Assembly: GCA_040772365.1 (NCBI GenBank)
Contig: JAXGYI010000006.1
Location: forward strand, 4,014 to 68,013
Length of the DNA stretch: 64,000 nt
Direction of reading: 5' to 3'
Origin: Candidatus Moraniibacteriota bacterium
Lineage (GTDB): Bacteria; Patescibacteriota; Minisyncoccia; Moranbacterales; GCA-2747515
In this document: positions 41,995-57,586 of the stretch, piece after piece
Position numbering within the stretch: the first letter of the stretch is position 1
How the letters are laid out: every line of letters starts with the position of its first letter
Position numbers and translations under genes: made by a program
Notes under the pieces: generated by a model
What the model saw: only the letters and a program-made list of their open reading frames with translations
Told to the model about the DNA's origin: nothing
Database searches by the model: none

Positions 41995-42017
41995 AGTGTG
42001 TCTATATTTTTGTTTTT

Positions 42018-42821
42018 TTACTTGCAGTCGCTGCTTATGAACTTGCCCCAAGTCCTTTGACTTAGTGATCCAGTTTCATCTTCATTAGGTGCGACTTGCA
42101 TCATTACTTTCCAGAATCCAGTTGGTCCTGCCATAGCTGGACTCCAGTCCATTTTAGCTCCATCTTCAGATCCTAAGCTTACTCTAAGATTTCCCCATGA
42201 TGTGAAGAGTACTCTTGATACCTTATCTTTAATTGAGCTGTCAGAATATACAGCTTTCATAATCTGGAATGAAACTATCTTCGCACTATCGCAATTTGGA
42301 AGTGCTCCATTGCCAGCATTTACGATAACCTCGTAAGGCGGAGGCGTGGTTGATTTTGCAAAATTACTTTTTGAATCCCAGATAGTGATCTCAAATTTAT
42401 CACTTATTTGTTTAATATTGCTTTCTATTTTTGCAATAGGGTCAGTTTTCTCTTCTTCAGTTTTAGTTGGGGTTTCAGTTACAGGCGCAGGTTGAGGTTC
42501 TGCTTGAGTTGCTACAGCTTGCGGTTCTTCAGTTTTCTGCGGTTCTGGTTGCGGCTGCTTGTTTTCTGTTACAGTAACCTTATTTTCAACTGGCGCAGAT
42601 TTGTTTTCAGATTTATTTCCTCCATAAATAAATATGGCAAGAATGATTACTCCAATAATTGCAAAGCCTTGCTTTTCTTTACTCCAAGTTGTTTTATGGG
42701 TTATATACCACATGGCAAACAGTGGCCATATTAGCAAGGCAATTATGATGCCCCACCATTTTTTATACCATTCTTTTTGAGCATTTTGAGTCTGCTCAAC
42801 AGACTTTGTTTCTTTTTCCAT
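42018..42821 (-). CDS. hypothetical membrane-anchored protein with Pro/Glu/Thr-rich linker
   Basis: N-terminal TM helices, 'PQPEPQKTEEPQAVATQAEPQPAPVTETPTKTEE' linker, C-terminal globular domain. Confidence 0.4.
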   Translation of the reverse strand: MEKETKSVEQTQNAQKEWYKKWWGIIIALLIWPLFAMWYITHKTTWSKEKQGFAIIGVIILAIFIYGGNKSENKSAPVENKVTVTENKQPQPEPQKTEEPQAVATQAEPQPAPVTETPTKTEEEKTDPIAKIESNIKQISDKFEITIWDSKSNFAKSTTPPPYEVIVNAGNGALPNCDSAKIVSFQIMKAVYSDSSIKDKVSRVLFTSWGNLRVSLGSEDGAKMDWSPAMAGPTGFWKVMMQVAPNEDETGSLSQRTWGKFISSDCK

Positions 42822-42941
42822 AATTTTTCGTCTAGGTTTTTTAAAATTATTTCAAAAATTGATTTTTAAGTAACACAAAAGGTCCCGCGAGCCGGACGAC
42901 AATCCCTTTCGAGACTGCCCGATGAACCTTTCGGAACATCG

Positions 42942-42988
42942 ACCTAGACGAATAAGCGCCGGTCACGAGACCGTTTCTATTCGTCTAG
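42942..42988. repeat. perfect 12-bp inverted repeat (CCTAGACGAATA ... TATTCGTCTAGG) with 23-bp spacer; a third CGTCTAGG copy at 42827-42838
   Basis: Read directly from the sequence. Lies about 100 bp downstream of the serine recombinase gene. Confidence 0.45.
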
Positions 42989-43087
42989 GATTCATATATT
43001 CTGCCATGCCCACGCCTTTCGTCATGGGTTTAGGCAATGTTGTACCCCAATTATTACATTTTTAAGGAACCTTTTCAATACCTGTGG

Positions 43088-44458
43088 TTATTTCATGGGG
43101 GTCTCATCTTTTTTGGCTAGTTTTAACTTCTTATTTATAAAAATAAGCCTGCTTTTCAGGCCTGCTAGCAACTCTCGCTTTTCATCAATTTTTCCTTCCC
43201 TTAGGACATACTTGGCATAAGTTCTGATATCAAAATTTTCTTGGAGCTTGGCTTCTTTTTCTTTGCCTTGCATCATGAGTACAGTTTTCTGGAACTGGTT
43301 GTATCTTTCGATTTCTTCCTCAAATTGTTTTCTAAGACCGATCTCATCAATTTCTAGTTCATCAACAATTTTCACTAGATCATTTATTAAATCTATTTCT
43401 CTCGCGTATCCAGCTTTGCAATGCAGATCTCTCGCCTTGGTACATCCATAGTAGATATGTTTATTTAGCCCGCCATTTTTTAATTGCTTGTATTTTTCTG
43501 TGGCAGTAATTCCCGAACCGCAATGTCCACAAGTTATGAGTTTGGTAAATGCGAACTCGCGACCTTCTCTGACAATGCGATCTCGCTTAAGTTGCTCTTG
43601 AGTGAGTTCGAATAATTCTTTTGTGATAAGCGGTTCATGATTTCCTTGATACCAATTTCCGCTATCTTTGGGATATTCAAATGGTCCATAATAGAAGGTA
43701 TTTTGAAGAAGCCGATAAATATTACTTAGTGAAAGATTTTTATTACTTTTGCCTTTGAAGTTCAATTCAAACCTAAGCCAATGATAAACCTTTCTTCCGC
43801 TCCAGTGATCGTATCCGACTTTTTCAAACATCCTTTTTATGATCGGTCCTCGAATTGGATCAATGACTACTCGGCAATTTCGCTCAGACAATCTTTCGTT
43901 GATATATCCAGTTGGAGTGCATGTTGGCCAAATACCCATTTCGCATCTTGCACGAAGTCCTCGCTTCACATTGATGCCCCTGTTATCATTTTCAAGTTTG
44001 GCTTGCGAGCATAAAATCATTAGCAAAAATTTTTCATTGGGAGAATTTTTGAATTGCTGACCATAAGTTCTGATTTCCATCAGAAGTTTTTGATCCATTA
44101 AATCAACCAGCGTTCCAAGATCGCCAGCGTTTCTGCTTAAACGATCGGGTGCCCAAGTCAGTATTCCGTTAAATTTATCTCTCCGAATATCTTCAATAAG
44201 TTCATTAAAAACTGGTCTTTGCGCTGAATCCTTAGCTGAGTGACTTTCACGTCTGATTTCCACAATTTCCAAATTCTCACGCTCCGCGATCTGGAGCATT
44301 TCTTTGACTTGGGAATCAATTGAAAGCACTTGGCGTTCCTCGGATTCGGTTGATTTTCTTGCGTACAGGCAATATTTGACCTTAGTCGGTTCTGCCTCTT
44401 GCTGGCCTTGAAAACCCTTGGAAATCCCTATTTTTTGCTCTACGGTTGTGTTATTCAT
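43088..44458 (-). CDS. large serine recombinase (resolvase/integrase family)
   Basis: N-terminal catalytic domain 'CLYARKSTESEERQVLSIDSQ' with the Ser nucleophile. Recombinase domain and C-terminal zinc ribbon 'CGHCGSG...YYGC'. Confidence 0.85.
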   Translation of the reverse strand: MNNTTVEQKIGISKGFQGQQEAEPTKVKYCLYARKSTESEERQVLSIDSQVKEMLQIAERENLEIVEIRRESHSAKDSAQRPVFNELIEDIRRDKFNGILTWAPDRLSRNAGDLGTLVDLMDQKLLMEIRTYGQQFKNSPNEKFLLMILCSQAKLENDNRGINVKRGLRARCEMGIWPTCTPTGYINERLSERNCRVVIDPIRGPIIKRMFEKVGYDHWSGRKVYHWLRFELNFKGKSNKNLSLSNIYRLLQNTFYYGPFEYPKDSGNWYQGNHEPLITKELFELTQEQLKRDRIVREGREFAFTKLITCGHCGSGITATEKYKQLKNGGLNKHIYYGCTKARDLHCKAGYAREIDLINDLVKIVDELEIDEIGLRKQFEEEIERYNQFQKTVLMMQGKEKEAKLQENFDIRTYAKYVLREGKIDEKRELLAGLKSRLIFINKKLKLAKKDETPMK

Positions 44459-44524
44459 ATAGTTATTACTTTATCTAATGAATGACGCAACCCTTGAATG
44501 AAGTCCAGACCCCTTAGAAATCTG

Positions 44525-45964
44525 CTAAAATCCCATCGGTTTTCTGGCAAAAACCCTTGGTGATCGCTTGTCCATTTTCACTGCCTCTCTGGCAACTATC
44601 GTAAAAGCATCAACCAAATCGTCGTGTTTTTCCTTGCCAAAACCAATGAGGTTTTCTATTAATTCTTCTGCTCCAATTTTGGGAAAGAGAATTCTACCAC
44701 TTGGGATAAGATTACTTATGGATGCAAGACGTGCGCGTTTGTCTGAAGTAACCTTACTGCCTTCAGCTTTGCAACCCTGAATGATTAACTGTTCAATGGC
44801 AACTCTTTGATATCCAACATCCTCAACAAAAATAATCCTATATCCCAAATATTGAAGCGATTCATACAGCAACTTAATTTGTTCAATGGTTTCTGTGAAA
44901 TTAAATCTGCTGTTTATTGGATTGGGCAAAATATAAATATGAAAATCTTTTCCATGTCCATAAATTGCAGCACTAACTATAGCAGTAAAGTCTGCTGACG
45001 TTTTTTGTGATATTGCCAAATCGGCTCCTATAATAACTTTCCTACATCTTCCCTTGGGTAAGGATGGATAATATTTGATTTGATCAGGATAAACAATCTG
45101 GTCTTCATCGGGAATTATCTCCAGCAGGTACTCACGTTTCCATGCAATCTCATTTCCAATGTTTTTATGTTCAATCTCAATATCTTTTAGAGTTGGATAT
45201 TTTCCTGACCACAATATTTCTCCTTTATCATCTACAAGAGGATAAGACTTAAAGACTCCGGTCGAACTTCCTTCTTCAATATCTCGTTTCAAATGCATCA
45301 GTAAAGAGTCTTCATGAAGAAGATTCCCAACAATCACAAGTTTTGTATTTCTATCTCCAGTAGGAATCACTTCACCCTTAAGCCAATCGTATGTTTTTTG
45401 TCGACCTTCTTTTGTTTTGGCTGATGCCATATCTTCAACATCGTCGCCAATAATTAAATCTGGGCGATGTGCTCCATGACGGAGTCCACGAATACTTTGC
45501 TCAGTAGATGCAACAGAAATTCTGGCGTTCATATTGGAAAAAACAAGAGAAGAAGAGCCCCACTCATCACTTTCTTCTTGAAAGGGTCCGAGATCATTTT
45601 TTAGTAACTGATTGCTTTCAAGCTCACGTTTAAGATTTATCATGTGCTGCTTTGCTTGATTTCTGGTTTGGCAAAGAATTAACACAAACTTCTTTTGTTG
45701 TTTTCCAAGAATTGCCCATATTGGATATGAGGTTGTAATTATGGTGGATTTTCCAGAACCCCGAAAAGCTACTATGTATAAATTTTTAACTTTTTTATCT
45801 TCCGTAAGATTAAACATTTCTTCTTGGAAATATGCAGTCTCATATTTTACATAATGAGGAAAATAGAAATTGAAAAACATGATATGACTTTCTTTAGTCA
45901 CCGCAATTCTGACAGCTCTGTCAGACATCATCCTATTAGTTAATTTTTTGTTTATTACTTTCAT
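44525..45964 (-). CDS. phage terminase large subunit
   Basis: Walker A 'AFRGSGKST', Walker B 'LIIGDDVED', C-terminal RNaseH-like nuclease 'IGADLAISQKTSADFTAIV'. Confidence 0.75.
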   Translation of the reverse strand: MKVINKKLTNRMMSDRAVRIAVTKESHIMFFNFYFPHYVKYETAYFQEEMFNLTEDKKVKNLYIVAFRGSGKSTIITTSYPIWAILGKQQKKFVLILCQTRNQAKQHMINLKRELESNQLLKNDLGPFQEESDEWGSSSLVFSNMNARISVASTEQSIRGLRHGAHRPDLIIGDDVEDMASAKTKEGRQKTYDWLKGEVIPTGDRNTKLVIVGNLLHEDSLLMHLKRDIEEGSSTGVFKSYPLVDDKGEILWSGKYPTLKDIEIEHKNIGNEIAWKREYLLEIIPDEDQIVYPDQIKYYPSLPKGRCRKVIIGADLAISQKTSADFTAIVSAAIYGHGKDFHIYILPNPINSRFNFTETIEQIKLLYESLQYLGYRIIFVEDVGYQRVAIEQLIIQGCKAEGSKVTSDKRARLASISNLIPSGRILFPKIGAEELIENLIGFGKEKHDDLVDAFTIVAREAVKMDKRSPRVFARKPMGF

Positions 45965-46344
45965 TTCCGCTTCTTAAAAGATGCGAGGCGCAAAGCTTCT
46001 CTAACTGCACTAGCTTGTTCTGGTGTTAATTCTTCTTGCGGTTCTGATTTTGTTGTAATCTCAACACGTTCTTTGAACTTTTCATGACGATGATTTAACC
46101 AAAATCTAATCGCTGGAAAATTCTTTTCTTTGATTAATGATATGAGTTGAGACTCGCTCATATCATTTACCAGGGCTTCACCTTCAGACAATGCTTCATC
46201 CAAAACTTTACGAAACTTCTTATCCTTATCTCGCCAACGATAAACGGTAGCTCGAGAAACTCCAGCTTTCTCGCAAGCCACTTGGATGATTGGAATTTTC
46301 TTGAGATTATCCAAAAAAAGTTTTTTAGTGTCATTGCTTTTCAT
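45961..46344 (-). CDS. HTH DNA-binding protein, terminase small-subunit-like
   Basis: 'IQVACEKAGVSRATVYRWRDKD' HTH. Sits directly upstream of the terminase large subunit with a 4-nt overlap. Confidence 0.5.
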   Translation of the reverse strand: MKSNDTKKLFLDNLKKIPIIQVACEKAGVSRATVYRWRDKDKKFRKVLDEALSEGEALVNDMSESQLISLIKEKNFPAIRFWLNHRHEKFKERVEITTKSEPQEELTPEQASAVREALRLASFKKRK

Positions 46345-46622
46345 ATTTGTTTTGCCTTTATTCCAAAAGTTTTATCAAATCGATTGATAATTGTTTGGCA
46401 ATATTCAGGATCAAGTTCGACCATCACACATTTTCTTTTGGTTTGTTCACATGCCACCATAGTTGAGCCGCTGCCTCCGAAGCAGTCATAAATAACTTCA
46501 CCGATTTCCGTACTATTGAGAATAATTCTGCGAAGTAGACCGATTGGTTTTTGTGTAGGATGCAATGAACTTTTATTTGGCTTTGGATAGTAAAGAATCG
46601 ATTTATCAATGATACGAGGCAA
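46341..46622 (-). pseudogene. truncated beta-class N6-adenine/N4-cytosine DNA methyltransferase (C-terminal fragment only)
   Basis: 'HPTQKPIGLLRRIIL...DCFGGSGSTMVA' (SAM-binding FxGxG end of beta-class MTases). No DPPY/NPPY catalytic motif in frame upstream. Confidence 0.55.
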
Positions 46623-46805
46623 ATAATTAAATGTTTAAGGAATAAAATATTGCTTAAAGATGATTTAACCACTGAAGATGAAGAGTTTCTTGGAAAATTA
46701 AACGAGGCACATAGCTTTCAACCATACTTAGGTAGTGGAAATAAATTCAAGGAAAGCGTTCAGAAATTATTTGAAAAATAGAATAATTAAGTATCTCATA
46801 AACAA

Positions 46806-49211
46806 ATGGAAAGTAAGCCATACTCAGTCTATATAGATCATCGCCCTACAAGGATAGCATTCTTAGTTAATCCTGATGGTGATCAAGCTTGGATTGATAG
46901 AATAATTGAATATAACAGAGAAAAATGGGGTGGAAGATTCAACCCCATTATTTTTACCGATGGAAAAAATATCGAAGATAAGTGGTGGAAATTCTTAAAG
47001 GATTATGATCCAGATATTATCAAGTCTACAATGCCACTTGAAGACGATCTTCTTAAAAAGATTCGAATATTTTTAACACCTTATTCTGTAGAAGTTCCTC
47101 GCCAAGATGAACAATATATACATATTCCTGATGACCCAGTTTCAATATTTCCCACCAAACAAGGAATTTTGCAAATTTCTAGAAGCTTCATGGATGATGC
47201 TGCGAGTCTGGTAATGTTTGATGTTGAAAAAGATACTCCTGATTCTATAAAAAAGTTTTTAGAAAGAAATTTTGGTGTTCAAGAGGATAATCAAAGTACT
47301 CCATATTATATAAGAAAGTCCCTAAGAAACTGCGACAAAAAAATATACAAAATTAAAGATTTTGAATCCCTAAATGAAGCCCTCTTAGATTTAGGAGATT
47401 TTCATAATAGAATTGTATTTCCTGCTCAAATATGTTCGATTCCAAATTATTTTAAAGACACCGCTTGGAGCAATGAAACAGAAAAATTTACAGTTGTTAT
47501 AGGAGACACGCCTGATGAATTAGCGTACCTATGGAACAGAGCTTTGCAGATTAAAAGCTGGCTAAGGCAAGATTTTACATGTCTTTGGTTGTCCAATGAA
47601 TTAGCAAATAATGAAATCATTAAGCCAGGATTAACAAAACTCTTTATTCGCTTTTCTGAAAGAGTTGGGAATGATAATTATCGTGGAATAAATTTCGTAT
47701 CTTTTTCATTATCGGAACAAGAAATAACTACTTTTTCATCAAGTATTGATGGATCATTATGGAGGCCACGGCAAATAATCAAGTACAATGAAATTCAAAT
47801 ACCCAATTTTGATAACAGGGCATCATTTTTTATTTTGAAACGAGGTCTCGAACTTTACAGGGCTCATTCCGAGGAAGAGCACATTATAATAAATGAACCT
47901 AATACAGAAGAGGGTGTTATGGGTGGTCAACATTGGGTTATTGATTTGCATATTCAATATCGGCCAGAATTATTCGAAAACATACAAGGAATAGATTACT
48001 GGTGGCAATTACCAAGAAGAGCAAATATTTTTCATAGCTTAAGGATGTTTAATAAGGAGACAAGAATAAATGAAGATGGGATGTTTAGTATTAAGATGCG
48101 AAGAAAATCTCACATTGAGCCAGATGAAAATATTTTAGTAGTTAGACTTCCACAAGAAAGAGGAATTTTTCATGCACTAACCTGTGGAGATAGTTATGAT
48201 TTTTATAAAGGAACTGACAGAGAACGATTTATGTCCAGACCTTTTGATTCCATGCAACGCTCAGATAAGGGCATGTATTTATCTGGAATTTTAAGCTTAT
48301 TTCCTGACCTGTTGAATGCTCATTACCAAATAGAAGATAGCTATTGGAGAAGTATTTTTGAAAAAATGTCTAACAGAAATGCTAATAAGGATCCCGATAG
48401 AAAAACAGAGATAAAAAACAAATTAAAGAAAATTATTGATAAAAATCAGGATTATAATGATCCTCAAAAACTAGATTATCTAGCTGAGAAAGTTTTAGTA
48501 ATGGCAAAAAATAATTCAGTACAAGAGGTTGAATTTTATTTCAAAGATTTTCTTAAAAATTATACCAACGACGAGGGAAAGAAATTTTCAGATTTAGAGA
48601 CAGAAGAAGCTGAGAGAGCAAAAAATGATATAAAGGATAATATTTCAGGCTTGATAGAGCAAAACATTTTATTAGCTGGCATTAAGCCTAGATGTCCGCG
48701 TTGTGGCTATAGAATTTGGTACCACATAAACGAAACTCAGCAACATATTGATTGTAAAGGATGTGGCCATATTTTTTCCCTAGATGGTGAAGAAAGGTGG
48801 TCTTATAAGTTAAACAGCCTTGTGAGATCCGCTTTTTCACTGCATGGGACAATCCCTGTTTTATTAGCACTCGGACAATTGCAACATGATGTTAGATCAT
48901 CGTTTATATTTTTCCCTGGAATTGAACTTATTTCGAAAGATGAAGAAGAAAAAATAGATAATGAAATCGATTTGATTTGTATTAAGGATGGAAAATTTAT
49001 TATAGGTGAGATAAAACAAACGATAGGATTATTTTGTCCGGAGGATTTCAAGCGCATGGAGAAAGTTGCAAAATTAATCAAACCAGATAAAGTAATTTTT
49101 TCTTCACTTGATAAGCAACCAACTGTATATGTAAATAAGGCAATTGAATCTTTAAGAAATAATCTTAAAGATTTGGAAATTGAAGTTGAATGGTATCAAC
49201 TCCATTTTTAG
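46806..49211 (+). CDS. large hypothetical protein with C-terminal zinc ribbon and possible PD-(D/E)xK nuclease-like motif
   Basis: 801 aa, very AT-rich. 'CPRCGYRIWYHINETQQHIDCKGCGH' followed by 'IDLICIKDGKFIIGEIKQ' (D...ExK spacing). No other recognisable domain. Confidence 0.5.
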   Translation: MESKPYSVYIDHRPTRIAFLVNPDGDQAWIDRIIEYNREKWGGRFNPIIFTDGKNIEDKWWKFLKDYDPDIIKSTMPLEDDLLKKIRIFLTPYSVEVPRQDEQYIHIPDDPVSIFPTKQGILQISRSFMDDAASLVMFDVEKDTPDSIKKFLERNFGVQEDNQSTPYYIRKSLRNCDKKIYKIKDFESLNEALLDLGDFHNRIVFPAQICSIPNYFKDTAWSNETEKFTVVIGDTPDELAYLWNRALQIKSWLRQDFTCLWLSNELANNEIIKPGLTKLFIRFSERVGNDNYRGINFVSFSLSEQEITTFSSSIDGSLWRPRQIIKYNEIQIPNFDNRASFFILKRGLELYRAHSEEEHIIINEPNTEEGVMGGQHWVIDLHIQYRPELFENIQGIDYWWQLPRRANIFHSLRMFNKETRINEDGMFSIKMRRKSHIEPDENILVVRLPQERGIFHALTCGDSYDFYKGTDRERFMSRPFDSMQRSDKGMYLSGILSLFPDLLNAHYQIEDSYWRSIFEKMSNRNANKDPDRKTEIKNKLKKIIDKNQDYNDPQKLDYLAEKVLVMAKNNSVQEVEFYFKDFLKNYTNDEGKKFSDLETEEAERAKNDIKDNISGLIEQNILLAGIKPRCPRCGYRIWYHINETQQHIDCKGCGHIFSLDGEERWSYKLNSLVRSAFSLHGTIPVLLALGQLQHDVRSSFIFFPGIELISKDEEEKIDNEIDLICIKDGKFIIGEIKQTIGLFCPEDFKRMEKVAKLIKPDKVIFSSLDKQPTVYVNKAIESLRNNLKDLEIEVEWYQLHF

Positions 49212-49229
49212 CTAAAACTTTTACTAATA

Positions 49230-50324
49230 ATGAATAATTACAAACATCTCCGAGATTGCATCTACTACAGCGAGCTATACGACCGCATGACAATCGACGA
49301 ATGCGAATGTTGGGATAGCGAAGTTTATGATGCTTATGTAAAATCGGGTAAAAAGTTTGACCCAGCAAAACCATCGCGAAGACTTCATGGCGGACTTTTG
49401 GCGGATCTTCACTTGCATTTTGTTAAAGGTGAACGCTATCTTGATAAGGAAACCACGATCAATGAATGGATGAAACGCGATCAAGCAAAAGATGAAAAAC
49501 TGGAAAATGCCATTGAGACAAAAGGCGTGCGTTGCCTTCATTGCAGTAGATCACTAACTAACTGCATTTCTCGTGATCTGATGATTGACTCTAAGGGCAA
49601 TGAAGAAGTTGTCTTTTTATTTGAATGCGACAAATGCCATAAGCGCAGAGCCTATTGGGAAAACGGAATTGAATGGCGACCAAAACCAGTATTGTGTGAG
49701 AAATGTAATTCAGAAATGGAAAGCAGTCATAATAAAAAAGGAAGCGTTGTTGAAACCAGTTACCGTTGCCTTAAGTGTCATCACAAAACCACTTTTAGCT
49801 ACGATCTTAATGAAAAAGAAGAAGCTATTGATCCAAACTTCGAATCCAAGCGAAAGAAGTATTGCCTTTCGAAAGAAGAAGGCATTGAATATTCTATCGG
49901 TAAAGGACATCTTGAGGCAGCAACCAATCTCATGAAAGATATGGAAGAAAGAGAATCTAATAGTGACCTTTATGATGCTATTGCAAAAATAAAGAAGCTT
50001 ACTGTTGCGGAGCTTCAAAGTTTCCTTGATCCAGTCATAGAAAAAGCTGGCTATACCAAGCTTGAGTTTGAAAAGCCAGATATTCAAAAGGATGTGGTTT
50101 TAGGATTCGGCATTCAAGATGCTAAATCTGGCAGAAATGACCGCGAAAGCATTTATGATCTCCAAAGACTTCTCAAAACTAGCTTAAAGCCTACAAATTG
50201 GCGTCTAATGAGCGACGGGGTGAACTACCGCCTTGGATACCTCCAAGGTCGTTTAAAGGGCTTGGAAGGCGAAGAAAATCTCCGAAAGCTTGTTGAATGT
50301 TATAATAAAAATAAGATGAAATAA
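49230..50324 (+). CDS. hypothetical multi-zinc-ribbon protein
   Basis: 364 aa. CxxC pairs 'CLHCSRS...CDKCHKRR...CEKCNSE...CLKCHH'. 18 nt after the upstream gene. Confidence 0.45.
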   Translation: MNNYKHLRDCIYYSELYDRMTIDECECWDSEVYDAYVKSGKKFDPAKPSRRLHGGLLADLHLHFVKGERYLDKETTINEWMKRDQAKDEKLENAIETKGVRCLHCSRSLTNCISRDLMIDSKGNEEVVFLFECDKCHKRRAYWENGIEWRPKPVLCEKCNSEMESSHNKKGSVVETSYRCLKCHHKTTFSYDLNEKEEAIDPNFESKRKKYCLSKEEGIEYSIGKGHLEAATNLMKDMEERESNSDLYDAIAKIKKLTVAELQSFLDPVIEKAGYTKLEFEKPDIQKDVVLGFGIQDAKSGRNDRESIYDLQRLLKTSLKPTNWRLMSDGVNYRLGYLQGRLKGLEGEENLRKLVECYNKNKMK

Positions 50325-50328
50325 ATTT

Positions 50329-51129
50329 ATGATAATTGATTCTCACATTCACATCTCACTATACAATGACAATGCAAAATCATTGCCGGAAGCTTTTGAT
50401 TTGTTCTTGCAAAAGATGGAGAAAAATGAAATAAGTGGCGCGATAATTATTCCGGATAATATAGAAGGCAGTGACAGCATTGCTGATTTGGAAAAAGCTA
50501 TTACATTGATTGGTGCGCGCAAAAACTTGTTCCTTCTGGGCAGTCCGCAAATCATTCAGAGAGGATCAAGTGAATTGGAAAAATATCGAAAGCTTTTGGA
50601 GGATGGAAAAGTAAAAGGACTCAAATTTTTTTCGGGTCACGATCCTTATTATCCGACCGATGAGCGCTGTCAGCCGTATTATGAACTATGTCAAAAATTG
50701 GATGTGCCGGTTTTATTTCATACTGGTGAGAACTCAGGCGACAGCGAATGTGGCAAATGGAATGACCCAAGATATATCGTTGAGGTAGCCAAAAAATATC
50801 CCAAACTAAAAGTTGTCATTACTCATTATTATTGGCCAAAAATGGAATATTGTTATGACATAACTAGGGACATTTCAAATATCTACTTTGAAACGGCGGC
50901 CATGGCTGATGCCGAAGTGGTTGAAAAAAGCGGCGGGATTGAAAAGGTCAAAGAAATATTGCAAAAAACTATTACTGATCGACCGGACAAAGTTATTTTT
51001 GGCACCGACTGGCCGATGTGCAAAATTGAGGAGCATGTTGAGCTAGTGAAATCATTGGGGTTGAATAAGGATTTAGAAGAAGGGATATTTTGGGGAAATG
51101 CAAAGAAAGCTTATAATCTTCCGTTATAA
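50329..51129 (+). CDS. amidohydrolase-2 family TIM-barrel metal-dependent hydrolase
   Basis: 'MIIDSHIH' HxH metal site, 'LFHTGE', 'VVITHYY', 'FGTDWPM' Asp. 4 nt after the upstream gene. Confidence 0.7.
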   Translation: MIIDSHIHISLYNDNAKSLPEAFDLFLQKMEKNEISGAIIIPDNIEGSDSIADLEKAITLIGARKNLFLLGSPQIIQRGSSELEKYRKLLEDGKVKGLKFFSGHDPYYPTDERCQPYYELCQKLDVPVLFHTGENSGDSECGKWNDPRYIVEVAKKYPKLKVVITHYYWPKMEYCYDITRDISNIYFETAAMADAEVVEKSGGIEKVKEILQKTITDRPDKVIFGTDWPMCKIEEHVELVKSLGLNKDLEEGIFWGNAKKAYNLPL

Positions 51130-51191
51130 TTTGCCAAATAATTCAAAAGACGCTAGCATATAAAAATTAAAAAATAATACTATTAAGTAAC

Positions 51192-51956
51192 ATGAAATCA
51201 CAAATTTACAATCAGGCCAAATATTACGAAATCGCTTTTAGCTTTGTTGATTCAGAAAGACAAGCCGATTTGTTTGAGAAGTTTATAAAAAAATATAGCA
51301 AGACGGGCGTAAAATCTGTTTTGGATTTGGCTTGCGGAACTGCTCTGCAACTCAGGGAAATGGCAAAAAGAGGATACAAATCAATCGGCCTGGATGCTAG
51401 TTCAAAAATGCTGGATTATTTGAAATGTGAATCTGAAAAAAATGGATTGAATGTAAACACAATCAAAGCTGATATCAATAATTTTAAGCTCAAGGAAAAA
51501 ATTGATTTTGCGTATATAATGATGGGGTCTATCATCTATGTCAAAAGCAATGATTTATTTCTTTCACATTTAAATTCAGTCGCGGATTCGCTAAATTCCG
51601 GCGGACTGTATCTTATAGAAAATCTCGCTATAAATTGGGCTGATCCATCTTTTTTTAAACCGCAACGCTGGATAATGAAAGAGGGTAAAATTAAGGTAAA
51701 AACAACTTATCAAATAATTCCGAAAAATCCGCTGAAACAAACAGTGACCCAAATATTAAAGATGGAAGTAGACGACAATGGAAAAAAGATGGAATTTATC
51801 GATAAGGATGATCTTAAGATAATTTTCCCTGAAGAATTGAGACTCCTTGTGGATAAAAATAGTAAGTTTGAATTAATTGGTTTTTTTGAGAGAAATAACG
51901 CGAAGCTATTAAAGAATGTTTCGCCCGATAATATTGTTTTATTAAGGAAAAAATAG
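51192..51956 (+). CDS. class I SAM-dependent methyltransferase
   Basis: Motif I 'VLDLACGTA' and post-I acidic 'GLDAS'. No DNA-MTase catalytic motif. Confidence 0.75.
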   Translation: MKSQIYNQAKYYEIAFSFVDSERQADLFEKFIKKYSKTGVKSVLDLACGTALQLREMAKRGYKSIGLDASSKMLDYLKCESEKNGLNVNTIKADINNFKLKEKIDFAYIMMGSIIYVKSNDLFLSHLNSVADSLNSGGLYLIENLAINWADPSFFKPQRWIMKEGKIKVKTTYQIIPKNPLKQTVTQILKMEVDDNGKKMEFIDKDDLKIIFPEELRLLVDKNSKFELIGFFERNNAKLLKNVSPDNIVLLRKK

Positions 51957-52024
51957 TTTCATTTTAAAATTATATAAGGAAAATGACCGGCTTTTCAGTC
52001 GGTCATTTTGTTTTGTGAAGATTC

Positions 52025-53221
52025 TCACAGTGATGCCCTGCGGATTTTAAGCTTTTTTAAAGCTGGGTATACACCGCAGTGGTTGGTGTCTTTGTATAGG
52101 TGTCTAGACATTGCCATGTTTTGCAAATCGCAGTGTCCACCGGATTTGAGCAAAGAGCAGTTGATGCATCCGGAAAAGGTATCGATTCGGAGTTTTCGTT
52201 CCTCTCCAAAGGCTTGAAGCCATGCGTCTGAAAATCTTGTATAACGAAGGTTATATTTTGATTTCCAGTTTTCTGCAGCATAGTAATTGTCGGCATACAA
52301 AAATCCATCCGAACTTACATATGCCACGAAAAGGCCTGGCTCCGGCCTCCCAGTTATTCTGACCAACTCCGAGATCGACTCGTAGATATTCGGATTTGAA
52401 ACAGGATATGTAGGCATCGGAATTGAGCGATTAGATTCGTAGCTCCTCCTGGCTTTTTCGAGCTCCAAAAGTTTCAGGAACTGATTTTCGCACAGAAGAA
52501 GTGACGGATTTTTCTTCGCTCTTCCGATTGGCAGGATGTCATTGAGAGAAAAATCGATGCCACTTTCAGCGCACCATTTTGCGGCTTGGATCATCTCGTC
52601 AATATTGTCATTGAAGATCAGTCCTTGGATTGCGAATGCCCTCCTTTTCGATTTGAGATTATTGATTATGCCCAAGATTCGCTTTCCTTGTATATGCCGT
52701 AAAATCGCGGTGCCTTTTTCTCCGTCAAAACTCAACACCAGAAAAACATCTTTGGGGATATCATCCACATTGATATTTTTCTCAAACTCAAGCCCGTTGG
52801 TTAGAAGATTACAGTTTAGCCCGATCCTCCTGGCATAAGTTACAAGTTCTATGCAATCTTTCCGCAGCAATGGATCTCCGCCGGTAAAGTATACATTTAA
52901 AACCTGCAACTTTCTGAGTTGATCTAGGATGTTTTTCCATTCGGTCGTGGACAACTCATCTTTTCTCGGTTTTCCGGCAGAGATGTAGCAGTGCTCGCAA
53001 CGCAAACCGCAACTTCGGGTAAGTTCCAGGTGTACTACTAATGGTGATTTTAGCGGGCAGGGTTTTGTTGTTAATTCGACAGGATAATCGGACAGTGGTT
53101 GATTGTCTTTGTTCAGGAAAATCAATTTTCCATCACCTGTTGATCGGATATTGCAGTAGCTTTCATGCCTTTCGATTTCTATATACATGGAAACCTCCTT
53201 GATTAAGTTGTTAAGGTGCAT
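52025..53221 (-). CDS. radical SAM enzyme with C-terminal SPASM domain
   Basis: 'LTRSCGLRCEHCY' CxxxCxxC, and a C-terminal 'CINCSLLKSGGHCDLQNMA...HCGV' auxiliary-cluster Cys pattern. Confidence 0.8.
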   Translation of the reverse strand: MHLNNLIKEVSMYIEIERHESYCNIRSTGDGKLIFLNKDNQPLSDYPVELTTKPCPLKSPLVVHLELTRSCGLRCEHCYISAGKPRKDELSTTEWKNILDQLRKLQVLNVYFTGGDPLLRKDCIELVTYARRIGLNCNLLTNGLEFEKNINVDDIPKDVFLVLSFDGEKGTAILRHIQGKRILGIINNLKSKRRAFAIQGLIFNDNIDEMIQAAKWCAESGIDFSLNDILPIGRAKKNPSLLLCENQFLKLLELEKARRSYESNRSIPMPTYPVSNPNIYESISELVRITGRPEPGLFVAYVSSDGFLYADNYYAAENWKSKYNLRYTRFSDAWLQAFGEERKLRIDTFSGCINCSLLKSGGHCDLQNMAMSRHLYKDTNHCGVYPALKKLKIRRASL

Positions 53222-53283
53222 CTTCTTTGACTTCCAAGACTATCATATCAATTTTGTTTAGTCAAAATTACCTGCGCGAAATC

Positions 53284-53335
53284 TTGACAAAAGCAATATT
53301 TATCTGTATAAAGATATGAACTGCATTTTTGCAGT
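53284..53335 (+). promoter_or_regulatory. near-consensus sigma70 promoter (TTGACA-N17-TATAAA) plus palindromic operator-like site ACTGCA-N4-TGCAGT
   Basis: -35 at 53284-53289, -10 at 53307-53312, palindrome at 53320-53335. About 55 nt upstream of the RNHCP/radical-SAM operon start. Confidence 0.45.
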
Positions 53336-53388
53336 CAATCAAACGGATTGCAACTTAACAACAGAATATACGATAAAAGGAGGCTGTG

Positions 53389-53703
53389 ATGGCAAAGCGA
53401 TTTTCAAGGCGTATCGAGGATTTTGTCTGTGAGAACTGTGGGGAGCTTGTTGAGGGTAACGGGTACACGAATCATTGTCCCAGATGCCTTTTTAGCAAAC
53501 ATGTCGATGTTAACCCGGGAGACAGAGCGGCAACTTGTGGCGGAATCATGGAGCCGATCAGTATTGAGGGTGGAAGAAAGGGCTTCATGATAACATTCCG
53601 ATGCAAGAAATGCGGTCATACGAAAAGAAACAGATCATCTGAAGTTGATGACATGAACAAAATCATTGAGCTTTCCAAGGGATATGCTCAAAAAAGGAGG
53701 TGA
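53389..53703 (+). CDS. RNHCP-domain zinc-ribbon protein
   Basis: 'GYTNHCPRC' (RNHCP-like motif) plus 'CENCG' and 'CKKCGH' CxxC pairs. Strong SD AAAGGAGG. Confidence 0.55.
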   Translation: MAKRFSRRIEDFVCENCGELVEGNGYTNHCPRCLFSKHVDVNPGDRAATCGGIMEPISIEGGRKGFMITFRCKKCGHTKRNRSSEVDDMNKIIELSKGYAQKRR

Positions 53704-53707
53704 TGCC

Positions 53708-54991
53708 ATGAATATCTTTATCCCAAGTGTTCCACATCTGGTTCACATAGAAACGACTTACGCTTGCAATCAGAGCTGTCGTTTCTGTTACAACCCTAAC
53801 CGCAACATGAAAATTGACCGGACGATTATCGATGGTATCGTTATGTCAATTTTCGAAGCATGGATTCCTCATGTGTATTTGATCGGAGGAGAACCCAGCT
53901 TGCTCGGTGCGAAGAAGCTCAATGAATACATAGAACTTCTCTCGCAGAGATCGTCGGTCACTATCGTGACAAATGGCCAAGTTTATCTCGAAGGCCTTTC
54001 CGATAAATTGGCCTGCATCGGGATACCTATGCATGGCATCAGCGAAACTCACGATTTTCTTGCTGGAAAAAGCGGAAGCTTCGAAACAGCAATCAAGTCG
54101 GTCGAGCGGTATGTGAAAAGAGGATTTGATGTCCGGTGCATACCCGTGCTGACAAAGACCAACTTCGACCAGATGTATGATGTCATCGGGTTAGCGAAAG
54201 AGCTCGGGATGGAAAGCGTCTTCGTAGACAGATACGAGGATGGCGGCATAGGCAGTCTTCGCTCATTGGAGCTTAAGCCATCACTTGAACAATTCAGGGT
54301 GGCGCTGGGGCAAATGATCGAAGGCAGAAATGATTTCGGTATCCCCGTTGGATGGGGAACGGCCATACCGTTCTGCTTGGATGAAAGGTTGATCACCGAA
54401 AACATGTTTGCGGATTGTGGAGCAGGTATTACATTCTGCGCCGTCAATCCCAAGGGTGAAGTAAGGCTGTGCAACCAATCCGAGCGGATTTACGGCAATG
54501 TGTTGAACGAACCGATGAATGAAATCTGGCACAAACCGGAACTTTCGGAGTTCCGCGATCTTGGATGGGTTGAAAAACCATGTCTGGGTTGCGCGGTTTT
54601 GTCAGATTGCATGTGCGGTTGTAAAGTTGATGCTAACCACTCGGAAACATTCTGCATCGACTACGCCGTAAGGGAAAATGGTAGCTTTTGCGAACCCAAA
54701 CCCTTGATTCATGATCGGGAAGGCTCGGGCATTCCTCACGAATTGCGTCGCTTCAAACTGAACAAGTACGCGCGACTCAATTCTCAACATAAGGAAAAAT
54801 ATCTGGTGACTCAATACCAGACAATTATCCTTGACGACATCGCCCTGTCTATGATGCAACAAATACTGTCAGGTGTAGTATGTGAAGAAACCCTGATAAG
54901 TATGAATGCTGAATTCGTAGATGAGGACGAGGTGAGGAAGTTTGTGTCTGTCCTGGATCAAGTCAAGGCAATAGACATTATCAAGGAGTGA
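53708..54991 (+). CDS. radical SAM enzyme with SPASM domain
   Basis: 'ETTYACNQSCRFCY' CxxxCxxC, C-terminal 'CLGCAVLSDCMCGCKVD' SPASM. The ATG at 53708 has SD AAAAAGGAGGTGA. Confidence 0.8.
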   Translation: MNIFIPSVPHLVHIETTYACNQSCRFCYNPNRNMKIDRTIIDGIVMSIFEAWIPHVYLIGGEPSLLGAKKLNEYIELLSQRSSVTIVTNGQVYLEGLSDKLACIGIPMHGISETHDFLAGKSGSFETAIKSVERYVKRGFDVRCIPVLTKTNFDQMYDVIGLAKELGMESVFVDRYEDGGIGSLRSLELKPSLEQFRVALGQMIEGRNDFGIPVGWGTAIPFCLDERLITENMFADCGAGITFCAVNPKGEVRLCNQSERIYGNVLNEPMNEIWHKPELSEFRDLGWVEKPCLGCAVLSDCMCGCKVDANHSETFCIDYAVRENGSFCEPKPLIHDREGSGIPHELRRFKLNKYARLNSQHKEKYLVTQYQTIILDDIALSMMQQILSGVVCEETLISMNAEFVDEDEVRKFVSVLDQVKAIDIIKE

Positions 54992-54994
54992 ACA

Positions 54995-55933
54995 ATGGAA
55001 AGAGAGCTGGCAGTGCGAGATTGGCACTGGGAAGTCACAAAAAAATGCAACCTGAAATGCCGCCACTGTATACTCGGGGGCTGTAGCAGTCAGGAGCAGG
55101 AGTTGACGACTCAGGATTCGCTCAGGGTCATATCTCGCATTGTCCAGCTTGGAGGAAAAACCCTCAGGATTACCGGTGGGGAGCCTCTTATGCGAAAAGA
55201 TCTAGGCCTAATTATTCGGGAGGCACACGCTTCTGGATTAGGCCTAGACTTAATAACTAACGGGACAATGTTAGACGATGACTTCCTGAGAAAGTACGGA
55301 CAGTGTATCAGTCACATGGCAATCAGTATTGATGGACAGAAAGAAGCCCATGAATATCTGAGAGGGATAGGGTCGTATGAAAAGTCCATACTGGCTGCAA
55401 AGAAGATTATGGACGTGGGTATAGATCTTTCTGTCTACATTACGGTACACTCATTAAATGAAAGCTCACTCGATCTTCTTGTGGATGAACTTGTGTCCCT
55501 TGGGATTGGAAGTTTTCATTTTAATGAAATCAATATGGAAGGGAGAGCATCGAAAAATCGGCATTTGCTTCTCGGACGGGAAAAGACTTCCAATAGACTT
55601 GATCGCATATTGTCCCAGCTACAAAAAGTCGTAGACGTTGGGCATGTTTCTCGCGATTCAAGCTGCTCGATCTCTTCAGACTCGGTCTACCTTGCTTCGG
55701 ACGGAAGAATCTATGCTTGCGTGGAGATAGCTTTTAAATCTCCCGAGCAAAAGATTGCCCATATTCTCGACCATGGGGCTGAAGGCAGGATAAACCGGTT
55801 CTTTTCAGAAGTGGTTATCCCGAAAGACTGCATTTGCCGATATTCATCATTTAGCATGCAAGGTATTAGTGTGTTACTTAATGAATCGGAGAGATGCCCA
55901 ATTCTAAAGGAAAGGAGGTTTGACAATGGATAG
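54995..55933 (+). CDS. radical SAM enzyme (possible SPASM/twitch C-terminus)
   Basis: 'VTKKCNLKCRHCILGG' CxxxCxxC. C-terminal Cys residues 'CVEIAF...DCICRY'. Confidence 0.75.
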   Translation: MERELAVRDWHWEVTKKCNLKCRHCILGGCSSQEQELTTQDSLRVISRIVQLGGKTLRITGGEPLMRKDLGLIIREAHASGLGLDLITNGTMLDDDFLRKYGQCISHMAISIDGQKEAHEYLRGIGSYEKSILAAKKIMDVGIDLSVYITVHSLNESSLDLLVDELVSLGIGSFHFNEINMEGRASKNRHLLLGREKTSNRLDRILSQLQKVVDVGHVSRDSSCSISSDSVYLASDGRIYACVEIAFKSPEQKIAHILDHGAEGRINRFFSEVVIPKDCICRYSSFSMQGISVLLNESERCPILKERRFDNG

Positions 55934-56492
55934 TCATCTGCGTAAACTGTACTCAGAGTTTAGTTTTCTCTACCGGGACATTCGATCTGTTTGCGCAGAT
56001 TGTAAAGATCATGACTGCGAGGGATATGTGTGGCTTCTGAAAGACGAGGCGTCCTTGCTGTATGATCTGAACGTTCCCATAGTGGAAATAAACGATAGTA
56101 CCTTTTTCATCCACTCATTCGAAGAGGTTGATGGATCATTATCGATCGACAAGCCAAAGCCGCCATGTAATCTGAGGCGCGATGGACTCTGTTCGATATA
56201 TGATTCAAGACCCTTGGTGTGCAGGATGTATCCGGTTGGACTCGTTACGGTGGATGGTGAGGTTTTGCTTGTCCTGCACAAGGACTGCAAATTCTCACGC
56301 GATATCAACGGCGAGGCTAAGGCAGCATTCATCGCGCAAGTGATTGAAGTGCTGAAACGGGCATCACCTGATCTTCTTGTGGAAGTCATGACTTCCTACA
56401 GAGAGGTTGATGCAATCTCGGCCTTTCCTGAAGGCCCCAACACCTATGAGGTTATCATGCCTTTTAGGTCTCTCATCCAAGAAAGGAGGTGA
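55926..56492 (+). CDS. YkgJ-family CxxCxxCC cysteine-cluster protein (putative Fe-S/Zn-binding)
   Basis: 'CADCKDHDCEGY...RRDGLCSIYDSRPLVCRMYP' matches the YkgJ/UPF0153 consensus. Confidence 0.6.
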   Translation: MDSHLRKLYSEFSFLYRDIRSVCADCKDHDCEGYVWLLKDEASLLYDLNVPIVEINDSTFFIHSFEEVDGSLSIDKPKPPCNLRRDGLCSIYDSRPLVCRMYPVGLVTVDGEVLLVLHKDCKFSRDINGEAKAAFIAQVIEVLKRASPDLLVEVMTSYREVDAISAFPEGPNTYEVIMPFRSLIQERR

Positions 56493-56498
56493 GCGGTT

Positions 56499-56615
56499 AT
56501 GTCGAAGTGCAAAGCTGTTTTGGACAGCCAGAAGGTGACCAAGATCACGGTCAGGAAGAAGGGCGAGAAGGCGACGGAGGTGTCGAAGGAAGTTGCGGCG
56601 ACCAAGAAGCCCTGA
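56499..56615 (+). CDS. unannotated 38-codon Lys-rich small ORF (MSKCKAVLDSQKVTKITVRKKGEKATEVSKEVAATKKP)
   Basis: ATG 6 nt after the YkgJ stop, preceded by AAAGGAGGTGA. Strongly AAG-biased Lys codons. Below the 60-aa cutoff of the ORF track. Confidence 0.35.
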   Translation: MSKCKAVLDSQKVTKITVRKKGEKATEVSKEVAATKKP

Positions 56616-57574: not shown

Positions 57575-57586
57575 CGATATAGTACT

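Follow-up and report, generated by a model that had tools for sequence, protein, structure and literature searches.

A four-gene array on a Patescibacteria island, read as a junction of mobile units with a candidate single-gene defence nuclease

Do four tightly spaced genes on an AT-rich island make up one functional system, or do they have separate origins and separate roles? The genes in question lie on the forward strand of a 64,000-nucleotide stretch of DNA from a Candidatus Moraniibacteriota bacterium, here called the window. They encode an 801-aa protein from an unnamed family (gene 1, 46806–49211), a 364-aa double zinc-ribbon protein (gene 2, 49230–50324), a 266-aa metal-dependent protein of hydrolase/decarboxylase type in Amidohydro_2 (PF04909; gene 3, 50329–51129), and a 254-aa class I SAM-dependent methyltransferase matching Methyltransf_25 (gene 4, 51192–51956). 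The open reading frame coordinates agree with the initial annotation, which described co-directional genes with gaps of 18, 4 and 62 nt. It had also placed their GC content far below that of the host, and this holds: the fractions are 0.326, 0.394, 0.385 and 0.328 for genes 1 to 4, against about 0.48 in the flanks (0.475 in window positions 1–41800 and 0.481 in 57000–64000). The sole terminator-like hairpin of the array (13-bp stem, 51980–52009, unstranded) comes after gene 4, where the methyltransferase and radical-SAM genes converge, and co-transcription of genes 1–4 in the window is therefore plausible. With moderate confidence, we read the array as the meeting point of three units that move independently, in which the 801-aa protein is cargo from a single-gene family and probably acts as a stand-alone defence nuclease.

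The array lies on an integrative island of about 15 kb (about 41.9–56.9 kb in the window) with a backbone of serine recombinase and TerS/TerL genes. This backbone (43088–46622, minus strand) is common to elements with 801 homologues in other genomes, and includes a large serine recombinase (43088–44458), TerL (44525–45964), TerS (45961–46344) and a 93-aa fragment of a truncated DNA methyltransferase (46341–46622), all on the minus strand. The array had been placed between degraded phage packaging genes and a radical-SAM cluster. The neighbours are right, with TerL and TerS upstream and the radical-SAM cluster downstream, but "degraded" is only partly apt, because TerL and TerS both seem intact and are found again in related elements. 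Host elements of this kind resemble PICI-type phage satellites and serine-integrase islands that bear defence cargo: they have a large serine recombinase, their own TerS/TerL and a ParB-methyltransferase, carry restriction-modification (R-M) systems and other cargo, and adjoin a tRNA gene. The host element showed neither capsid nor tail genes. Unlike PICIs, it is found in Patescibacteria, and its hallmarks are a LOOT RNA, the 364-family gene and an array of TGTCTCA repeats, none of which is known to have been described for PICIs.

Across genomes, a conserved four-gene operon was not found. All four genes occur together elsewhere only on a short contig with 99.95% identity to the window (L086) and in a near-identical strain (L085). 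Locus L010 has genes 1 and 2 only: it matches the window at 94% identity over 46596–50297, then diverges, and the match resumes only at 56715–56885. Where the window has genes 3 and 4, L010 carries DUF4238 and a MauJ-like gene. L005 shares even less with the window (only 49233–50297), and three further loci (L087–L089) share only 50326–53079, at 81% identity, having genes 3 and 4 and lacking genes 1 and 2. A recombination junction is thereby placed at 50298–50325 (unstranded), between the end of the L010 and L005 homology at 50297, which lies 27 nt short of the 364-aa gene's stop codon, and the start of the L087–L089 homology at 50326. Upstream of gene 1, 46578–46778 (plus strand) holds the 3' remnant of a 316-aa gene, namely its last 63 codons at 91% identity. 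The gene is intact in L010, upstream of the 801 homologue, and the remnant marks the left junction of the shared 801–364 block.

The segment at which L010 homology resumes (56715–56885, plus strand) is a conserved non-coding element, with an inverted pair of TGTCTCA-type heptamers and then GTGTCTCATTTGTCTCATTTTG (56751–56772), in which TGTCTCATTT is directly repeated twice over. In loci that are "empty", the stop codon of the 364-family gene is where this element starts, and in L167, L163 and L130 the stop codon is within the first heptamer of the array; in the window, 6.4 kb of cargo lies in between. Within the final ~9 codons of the 364-family gene, the inserts of the window and L010 differ. 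Of 120 contigs with the 22-mer, 13 show a co-oriented 364-family gene on its upstream side, at a distance of 40–64 nt in four cases and of 0.5–4.8 kb in the rest. Variable cargo gathers on both sides of the 364-family gene. Judged from these sequence comparisons, the 364-aa gene is the anchor, or backbone gene, of a cargo-insertion hot spot beside the TGTCTCA-repeat array, and its product is possibly a DNA-binding regulator of that array. All named homologues of this protein are from Patescibacteria, and the four CxxC pairs previously noticed in it (C102/105, C133/136, C156/159 and C180/183) are indeed conserved: across 50 homologues all are either invariant or retained in at least 90%.

It could be argued that the 364-aa protein is instead the constant partner (an adaptor, regulator or sensor) in a two-gene system with interchangeable large effectors, one of them the 801-aa nuclease. 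Time and again the 364-family gene comes last, behind the gene for a large Pfam-less protein of 801, 809, 815, 880, 1220 or 1583 aa, sometimes with small genes in between (two in L005 and L009), and its start is at most 18 nt from, or overlaps, whatever gene is directly upstream. The same 801-to-364 order is found in a divergent element (L156; 31% and 44% amino acid identity), and both genes were transferred jointly, in a block of 3.7 kb (94% identity), between the window genome and L010, so that the two may be functionally linked. However, the large proteins upstream of 364-family genes have no detectable mutual similarity, and the 364 genes of L003 and L142 have no large upstream partner. 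The gap between the two genes is about 270 nt in L156, and in L003/L011 they are 6 kb apart with terminase genes in between. The predicted 364-aa structure gave no informative fold match, with neither an enzymatic nor a known sensor fold. The 801 family also extends beyond Patescibacteria to Bacteroidota, Acidobacteriota, Poribacteria, Cloacimonadota and proteobacterial plasmids, and its loci there have no 364-family gene nearby. The initial annotation called the 364-aa protein a partner of the 801-aa protein; the two genes are adjacent in L010 and L156, but a 364-family gene is within 10 kb of an 801 homologue at only 2 of 73 genome loci. On this comparison the 364-aa protein is not an obligate partner of the 801-aa nuclease, and we consider a two-gene system doubtful.

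The reading of gene 1 as a stand-alone defence nuclease begins with the protein itself. A C4 zinc ribbon (CxxC...CxxC: C630, C633, C650 and C653; codons 48693–48764, plus strand), recognised from the homologue alignment and from weak Pfam matches to Zn_ribbon_IS1595 and IBR_1, is followed by IDLICIKDGKFIIGEIKQ, which contains the nuclease catalytic motif D722-x12-E735-x-K737 (codons 48969–49016, plus strand), supported by conservation and fold matches. None of these seven residues varies in any of 45 homologues. In diverse representatives of the family the four cysteines are found in 130/130, D722 in 129/130, E735 in 128/130 and K737 in 126/130, so that the ribbon and D...ExK pattern first read from the one sequence is near-invariant. 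In the AF2 model (pLDDT 85.3, pTM 0.81) the motif is on predicted strands 717–727 and 730–736. Foldseek matched this model to VC1899/DUF1887 (E 4e-4), Cdn1 (1e-3) and Can2 (2.5e-3); further fold matches were AspBHI, SdaI, EcoT38I, the Mrr-like domain of LlaBIII, and FokI. The PD-(D/E)xK-like core suspected earlier is thus borne out by structure prediction: the C-terminus has the alpha-beta-beta-beta-alpha-beta core of solved members, its structurally nearest family is Card1/Can2 (DUF1887), and it is predicted to be a nuclease fold of the Card1/Can2 type with an intact D...ExK site. The N-terminal region of ~620 aa has two Rossmann-like alpha/beta lobes, a beta-rich domain, and winged-helix-like and helical parts. 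Its two near-invariant motifs, WGGR (41–44) and DPD (68–70), are more suggestive of a site for ligand binding or catalysis.

The family is large, with 3889 clusters at 50% identity. Cluster representatives, mostly full length, number 3889, 2235 and 729 at E values of at most 1e-3, 1e-10 and 1e-30. No Pfam, NCBIfam, PHROG or PADLOC family matches the 801-aa protein, and its plasmid homologues are named "hypothetical protein" by PGAP. A PADLOC search, one of the checks proposed with the initial annotation, was run and gave no credible match for either protein: PADLOC-DB 2.0.0 returned nothing for the 364-aa protein and, for the 801-aa protein, a single chance-level match to a Type I S-subunit (E 0.044). 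Viral contigs seldom carry the family (6 loci). No R-M system is present in the window. Elsewhere, a Type I or Type ISP R-M system is within 10 kb of the 801 homologue at 18 of 73 loci and is mostly adjacent to it or has it embedded, although these 18 are not independent, because only about four lineages contribute them. The 18 are made up as follows. In Patescibacteria-type islands the 801 homologue is directly 3' of HsdR-YgjP with a 4-nt gap (L003, L011–L013) or directly follows HsdR (L019). In four Poribacteria loci and L004 the order is hsdS, 801 homologue, hsdM (L004, L029, L031, L033 and L035), and in eight Poribacteria loci the 801 homologue is 2–4 genes downstream of a Type ISP enzyme. 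Other direct neighbours are mixed, and the variable neighbourhoods hold genes for Schlafen-AlbA_2, STAND NTPase and toxin-antitoxin proteins. Integrase genes are a recurrent feature within 10 kb, and many 801 homologues have no defence genes as direct neighbours, which would also suit a role in repair or maintenance. Genes in the fetched comparison loci are simple ORF calls, and across the loci examined no conserved partner gene of the 801 family was found.

Since this large unnamed nuclease family recurs in and beside R-M operons, the 801-aa protein is a good candidate for a hitherto undescribed anti-phage defence made up of one gene. Its most likely identity is that of a stand-alone DNA nuclease serving defence; we infer its activity, its DNA substrate and its role in defence from family membership, motif conservation, the fold, the lack of a conserved partner and the linkage to R-M systems and islands. 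As an ATP-independent DNA endonuclease it would act against phages and other mobile DNA, with the N-terminal region sensing a trigger or recognising a DNA feature and then licensing the nuclease. It would complement ATP-dependent R-M, acting as a Type IV-like enzyme that depends on modification or serving as a back-up effector.

A nuclease of this kind might also serve in maintenance, recombination or repair, of mobile elements or of the host, for instance as a structure-specific or homing-type enzyme with no part in defence. Proteins combining PD-(D/E)xK folds and zinc ribbons act in repair and recombination too, NucS and RuvC-like chains are among the weaker fold matches, and the 801 gene is often a passenger of serine-recombinase islands. 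In addition, its position is stable and housekeeping-like in the Cloacimonadota clade, where it sits among purine-biosynthesis genes, and in one patescibacterial locus (L001), where a copy lies amid housekeeping genes. Against this, the family is taxonomically patchy, it is embedded in Type I R-M operons and found after Type ISP enzymes, and its neighbourhoods vary and hold the Schlafen-AlbA_2, STAND NTPase and toxin-antitoxin genes mentioned above. The top fold matches are defence nucleases (Can2, Card1, FokI and restriction enzymes). A role outside defence is, in our judgement, improbable.

Three groups of known systems are worth comparing with the stand-alone defence nuclease proposed here. 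The 801-aa protein shares its predicted nuclease fold with Can2, Card1, Can1, Cdn1 and VC1899 (DUF1887), the CARF-nuclease effectors of type III CRISPR. It differs from Card1/Can2 in sequence and setting: neither it nor its 45 homologues have Card1_endonuc or CARF Pfam matches, even at E <= 1, and cas and cyclase families are absent from the listed direct-neighbour families and annotated recurrent neighbour clusters of 801 loci. Mrr-kind Type IV (modification-dependent) enzymes are co-located with hsdRMS in the immigration control region of E. coli. Like them, the 801-aa protein combines in one polypeptide a putative recognition part at the N-terminus with a PD-(D/E)xK domain at the C-terminus, in a family that adjoins Type I R-M; unlike them, it has no detected Mrr_cat match or modified-base reader domain (SRA, EVE or YTH), and its N-terminal region, with the WGGR and DPD motifs, is much larger. 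PrrC and RloC, which are latent nucleases of abortive infection, are encoded inside Type I R-M operons. The 801 homologues at four Poribacteria loci are likewise within a Type I operon, which is not so in the window, and by analogy the hsdS–hsdM placement points to a back-up function tied to the R-M complex. Unlike PrrC and RloC, the 801-aa protein has no detected ABC-ATPase or other ATPase, P-loop (Walker A) or PrrC-type anticodon-nuclease domain, and its effector is the PD-(D/E)xK fold.

Genes 3 and 4 are a different matter. Both earlier assignments exceed their Pfam cut-offs, gene 3 with 90 bits against Amidohydro_2 (cut-off 26.4, E 3e-25), where no NCBIfam equivalog was reached, and gene 4 with 51.8 bits against Methyltransf_25 (cut-off 27). 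The top NCBIfam match of gene 4, the daptide RiPP methyltransferase NF041820, scores 45 bits and fails the cut-off of 175, so membership is only in the generic class I SAM methyltransferase family. Gene 4 resembles methyltransferases of small molecules and RiPPs, not DNA methyltransferases. The initial annotation saw all four genes as a candidate novel defence or modification module. In such a system, nuclease and zinc-ribbon partner would be joined by a hydrolase and a self-protecting methyltransferase. The tight co-directional spacing, with the first terminator-like site only after gene 4, fits this, a methyltransferase beside a nuclease recalls R-M logic, and gene 4 has a partial PADLOC "mad2" match (E 2.6e-13). 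Yet that match spans only the generic SAM-binding fold, homology breaks exactly between genes 2 and 3, genes 3 and 4 are seen with a radical-SAM gene and without genes 1 and 2, L010 has other genes in their place, and an amidohydrolase or methyltransferase homologue was found at none of the other 801 loci; a single four-gene system is very unlikely.

The alternative raised at the same time, a biosynthetic pathway shared with the radical-SAM genes, is right for genes 3 and 4 and wrong for genes 1 and 2, because of the breakpoint between genes 2 and 3 and because genes 3 and 4 travel with the radical-SAM gene without genes 1 and 2. Although genes 3 and 4 are linked physically and evolutionarily to the convergent radical-SAM gene and the entire 50298–56714 stretch behaves like inserted cargo, a pathway of all four genes is scarcely credible, as genes 1 and 2 are outside the insert, are widespread without a radical-SAM neighbour and are observed in L010, L156 and L003 without radical-SAM or tailoring genes, and gene 1 is predicted to encode a nuclease, not a biosynthetic enzyme. 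Under the preferred reading as a junction of mobile units, genes 3 and 4 and the radical-SAM (SPASM/twitch-like) gene (52025–53221, minus strand), the third and convergent gene of the set, make up a separate 2.75-kb module, here inserted at the hot spot. In this genome the module lies between the 364-aa gene and the repeat array, and its function is probably the tailoring of a small molecule or peptide. In L087–L089 it adjoins an IS200-type transposase gene.

The four co-directional open reading frames are present exactly as the initial annotation had them, on the plus strand with gaps of 18, 4 and 62 nt: gene 1 (801 aa, 46806-49211), gene 2 (364 aa, 49230-50324), gene 3 (a 266-aa amidohydrolase, 50329-51129) and gene 4 (a 254-aa SAM methyltransferase, 51192-51956). 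Their AT-richness was likewise borne out, with GC of 0.33-0.39 against 0.475 and 0.481 in the host flanks. The host belongs to the Patescibacteria (CPR); the closest named homologues of its DnaX, 57-62% identical, come from Patescibacteria, Parcubacteria and Moranbacteria. Co-transcription in the window is plausible, since the sole terminator-like hairpin of the gene row (51980-52009) comes after gene 4. Comparison with loci in other genomes and metagenomes (given L-numbers here) corrects the reading of these genes as one defence or modification operon. The mosaic structure of the row is well supported, and the tight same-strand spacing reflects recent juxtaposition, not a functional operon. 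Directly 5' of the 801-aa gene, a truncated DNA methyltransferase gene (46341-46622, minus strand) codes for 93 aa, where related elements have about 440. It overlaps what is left of the 3' end of a second gene (46578-46778, plus strand), which in L010 is intact and encodes 316 aa. This overlap marks a deletion or recombination scar, the left junction.

The 801-aa protein has 154 close homologues, all of them unnamed and without Pfam domains. A family profile built from 45 homologues retrieves 3889, 2235 and 729 cluster representatives at E <= 1e-3, 1e-10 and 1e-30, respectively, and most of these are about 800 aa long and align end to end. Pfam, NCBIfam, PHROGs and PADLOC gave only chance-level zinc-ribbon matches, even when all 45 members were scanned, and PDB sequences searched with the family alignment profile gave no match below E = 1. 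Plasmid-borne homologues carry the PGAP label 'hypothetical protein', and a literature search for a named family, or for an equivalent embedded in restriction-modification (R-M) loci, found nothing specific. The zinc ribbon and D...ExK motif first noticed in the single sequence hold up in the 45-sequence alignment, where C630, C633, C650, C653, D722, E735 and K737 are invariant; among 130 diverse representatives the cysteines are kept in all 130, D722 in 129, E735 in 128 and K737 in 126. The motif is real and looks functional. The structure prediction shows a C4 zinc ribbon and, after it, a C-terminal nuclease of the Card1/Can2 PD-(D/E)xK type. The N-terminal region of about 620 residues is predicted to be built of two lobes of Rossmann-like fold, a beta-rich domain and further parts that are winged-helix-like or helical; no strong structural relative was found for it, and no P-loop was seen in the protein. 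A second near-invariant site of the family is N-terminal (W41-G42-G43-R44 and D68-P69-D70).

A scan of 185,579 species genomes yielded 158 confirmed relatives, from which 75 distinct loci were retained, their genes being simple ORF calls. The hosts include Patescibacteria, Bacteroidota, Cloacimonadota, Poribacteria, Acidobacteriota, Gemmatimonadota, Bdellovibrionota and others. No conserved partner gene was found in these loci: direct neighbours are heterogeneous, and clustering them brought out nothing beyond R-M genes, recombinases and synteny within clades. The families seen most often in the 138 immediate neighbours, with five members each, are the methyltransferase domains N6_Mtase, Eco57I and UPF0020, and Aminotran_5, followed by SLFN_AlbA_2 (4), HsdM_N (4) and YgjP (3). 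The R-M linkage takes several forms. In the islands of Patescibacteria type, the order HsdM-HsdS-x-HsdR-YgjP is followed by the 801 homologue at a 4-nt gap in L003 and L011-L013, and in L019 the homologue directly follows HsdR. It stands between hsdS and hsdM in four Poribacteria loci and L004, and adjoins a Type I operon in L045 and L075. In eight further Poribacteria loci it lies 2-4 genes 3' of a 1630-aa Type ISP R-M enzyme, with an HNH protein in between in four of the eight. Altogether 18 of 73 full-length loci are R-M-linked, drawn from only about four lineages, and we take this linkage to be far above chance, as estimated from general R-M gene density. Further contexts are tyrosine integrases, caspase-TPR proteins and STAND NTPases, as well as toxin-antitoxin and Fic genes on plasmids; on viral contigs the family is rare, with six distant loci. 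Against a defence role count a Cloacimonadota clade in which the gene sits stably among purine genes, and the homologue of L001, which lies among housekeeping genes. A class-V aminotransferase/cysteine-desulfurase-like gene is found beside the 801 homologue, at position +1, in Cloacimonadota (L021-L026) and four genes upstream of it in L001 (Patescibacteria). These aminotransferase-like neighbours give weak DndA/SspA matches in PADLOC, and their proximity may be coincidence or may hint at sulfur/phosphorothioate chemistry.

The 801-aa protein would be expected to work like known nuclease effectors, yet it departs from the three types compared. Unlike Card1/Can2, it shows neither a CARF nor a Card1_endonuc signal, and cas families are absent from the listed recurrent neighbours of the family. 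Unlike Mrr-type enzymes, it lacks an Mrr_cat or modified-base reader domain, and unlike PrrC/RloC, it lacks an ATPase or anticodon-nuclease domain. It also matched no model of PADLOC-DB 2.0.0 (2023), the newest defence catalogue used. Given these differences and the lack of a PADLOC model, we rate it as a predicted R-M-linked stand-alone nuclease of new architecture. Established for this large orphan family are an intact PD-(D/E)xK site and zinc ribbon in a predicted Card1/Can2-like fold, a single-gene distribution, and genomic association with R-M loci and with mobile islands. We propose that the protein is an ATP-independent DNA endonuclease serving defence, in which the N-terminal region may sense a trigger or a DNA feature and so gate the nuclease. 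Its role might be complementary to Type I and Type ISP systems, that of either a modification-dependent restriction enzyme or a back-up effector. We lean towards this overall reading, a mosaic gene row with the 801-aa protein as a defence endonuclease, its defence role being less certain than the mosaic structure. Should the family prove to act as a nuclease in defence, it would add thousands of 50%-identity clusters, spread over many phyla and represented in cultured Flavobacterium and Pedobacter, that are unnamed in all curated libraries searched. It would also represent a new architecture, a sensor plus a Card1/Can2 nuclease working without CRISPR, and a further case of immune genes wired into Type I/Type ISP R-M operons.

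The 364-aa protein, which has no more than weak zinc-ribbon matches in Pfam, NCBIfam, PHROGs and PADLOC, is not an obligate partner of the 801-aa nuclease. A 364-family gene lies within 10 kb of an 801 homologue in 2 of 73 loci: in L010 the two are adjacent, and in L011 they are 6 kb apart with terminase genes between them. Elsewhere the 364-family gene comes after unrelated large proteins (815, 880, 1220 and 1583 aa) or small ones. The large upstream proteins show no similarity to one another except for two related pairs, the 801-aa protein with an 809-aa protein of L156, and a protein of L163 with one of L167. A two-gene system of the 801- and 364-aa proteins draws support from L156, which repeats the gene order of the window (TerL-TerS-methyltransferase, 801 homologue, 364 homologue, 1.4 kb, heptamer array) at protein identities of 31% (801) and 44% (364). 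On our reading, this order means that the nuclease is often carried as cargo next to a 364 anchor gene; a two-gene system is quite improbable. Two other candidates were rejected: the 815-aa protein beside the 364 homologue of L005 has no similarity to the 801-aa protein, and neighbours of about 200 aa upstream of 364-family genes are alike in size, not homologous. DUF4238 proteins also occur next to 364-family genes, upstream in L005 (7104-8000) and downstream in L010 (4640-5680). Since L010 in addition has a Type II R-M pair and a ClpP-like protease of SDH type, it is considered a defence-type island.

A conserved non-coding array at 56715-56885 is common to the window, L010, L009 and L007, always 3' of the 364-family gene. 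It consists of an inverted TGTCTCA/TGAGACA heptamer pair followed by two direct TGTCTCATTT repeats, and an Rfam search with the 172-nt element gave no match. Its 22-mer core, GTGTCTCATTTGTCTCATTTTG (56751-56772), has a single copy in the window, where none would be expected by chance, and was found in at least 120 metagenome contigs by an exact-match search, which inflates the apparent conservation of the core. A 364-family gene is present on 14 of these contigs, upstream and in the same orientation in 13 of the 14, and in 4 of those 13 it ends 40-64 nt before the core. A serine recombinase is found in 13 of the 22-mer contigs and TerS in 8, and the 22-mer often lies either directly 3' of a 364-family gene or about 250 nt 5' of the start codon of a serine recombinase. 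In three empty loci (L167, L163 and L130), where the 364-family gene directly abuts the array, its stop codon falls inside the first TGAGACA heptamer, whereas the window and L010 have different cargo (6.4 kb and 2 kb) inserted within the last nine or so codons of the gene. From this comparison of empty and filled loci, the 364 gene and the array together mark a hot spot for cargo, which is often the right end of an island of this family. The array probably serves to bind a protein involved in recombination, packaging or regulation. A more ambitious proposal joins three claims: that the 801 family is a new, widespread single-gene immune nuclease coupled in function to the ATP-dependent Type I and Type ISP R-M machines, perhaps as a guard set off by inhibition of the R-M complex or as a nuclease drawn to translocating complexes that have stalled, that the conserved N-terminal WGGR/DPD domain is an undescribed sensor or second catalytic site, and that the 3' end of the 364 gene with the array is a dedicated cargo-capture site of Patescibacteria islands. 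Taken jointly, these are rather unlikely to hold.

Genes 3 and 4 are part of such an insertion. Homology of L010 and L005 to the window ends at 50297, and L010 has a DUF4238 gene and a MauJ-like gene in their place. In L087-L089 an 81% identical block (50326-53079) takes in genes 3 and 4 together with most of the convergent radical-SAM gene; genes 1 and 2 are absent there, and the block is flanked by an IS200-type transposase gene in L087 and L088. These breakpoints and the block without genes 1 and 2 indicate that genes 3 and 4 belong with the radical-SAM gene in a predicted tailoring module. The gene 4 product resembles small-molecule/RiPP methyltransferases (its best NCBIfam match, a daptide methyltransferase, is below cut-off), and the radical-SAM protein is similar to SPASM/twitch enzymes that mature peptides and cofactors. 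A 'mad2' match of gene 4 in PADLOC was judged to be generic SAM-fold similarity. The radical-SAM biosynthetic pathway offered initially as an alternative is thus retained for genes 3 and 4, which travel with the radical-SAM gene, and dismissed for genes 1 and 2, which are missing from L087-L089. A second part of the cargo (53386-56492) encodes an RNHCP-domain zinc protein, two radical-SAM proteins, one of them of radical-SAM/SPASM type, and a YkgJ-like protein with a CxxCxxCC motif; the GC of this part, 0.45-0.47, is close to that of the host, unlike the adjoining AT-rich genes. Distantly related radical-SAM genes also adjoin the heptamer array in L175.

To our knowledge, the phage defences and mobile elements of Patescibacteria are poorly known, and the analysis outlines a recurrent island of this group with a serine recombinase, its own terminase, LOOT RNA, and a conserved anchor gene beside a cargo-gathering repeat array. 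In the window the island starts next to tRNA-Ser (41826-41915) and contains a large serine recombinase, TerL, TerS and the 93-aa methyltransferase fragment; direct repeats of the tRNA-Ser 3' end, sought as att sites, were not found. Islands of this type, about 15-18 kb long, were seen in the window (41916-56885) and in L003/L011, L012-L015, L019, L131, L142, L156, L170 and L193. They encode a large serine recombinase, TerL and TerS that seem intact, and a ParB-DNA-methyltransferase, and their cargo includes Type I R-M systems among other genes. Capsid and tail genes were not seen in them, and the type resembles a satellite more than it does a prophage in decay. LOOT RNA (Rfam RF03000), an orphan motif on which the literature search found nothing specific, lies just 3' of the serine recombinase gene in the window (42898-43036, minus strand, 55 bits). 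It scores 75-84 bits in five related islands (L011 12620-12741, L013 14909-15040, L015 16283-16402, L102 1243-1367 and L142 9557-9685), and appears to be a recurrent part of the Patescibacteria island family with serine recombinase and TerS/TerL. In a near-identical strain (L085, GCA_040769235.1), aligned to window 40227-61140, the island genes are split into fragments. Pseudogenisation was rejected as the cause: the breaks are single-base indels, six of eight in homopolymers, and host genes are affected too, so they are regarded as assembly errors. Within the same alignment, window 40227-44458 is highly divergent from L085, with 33-96 substitutions per kb.
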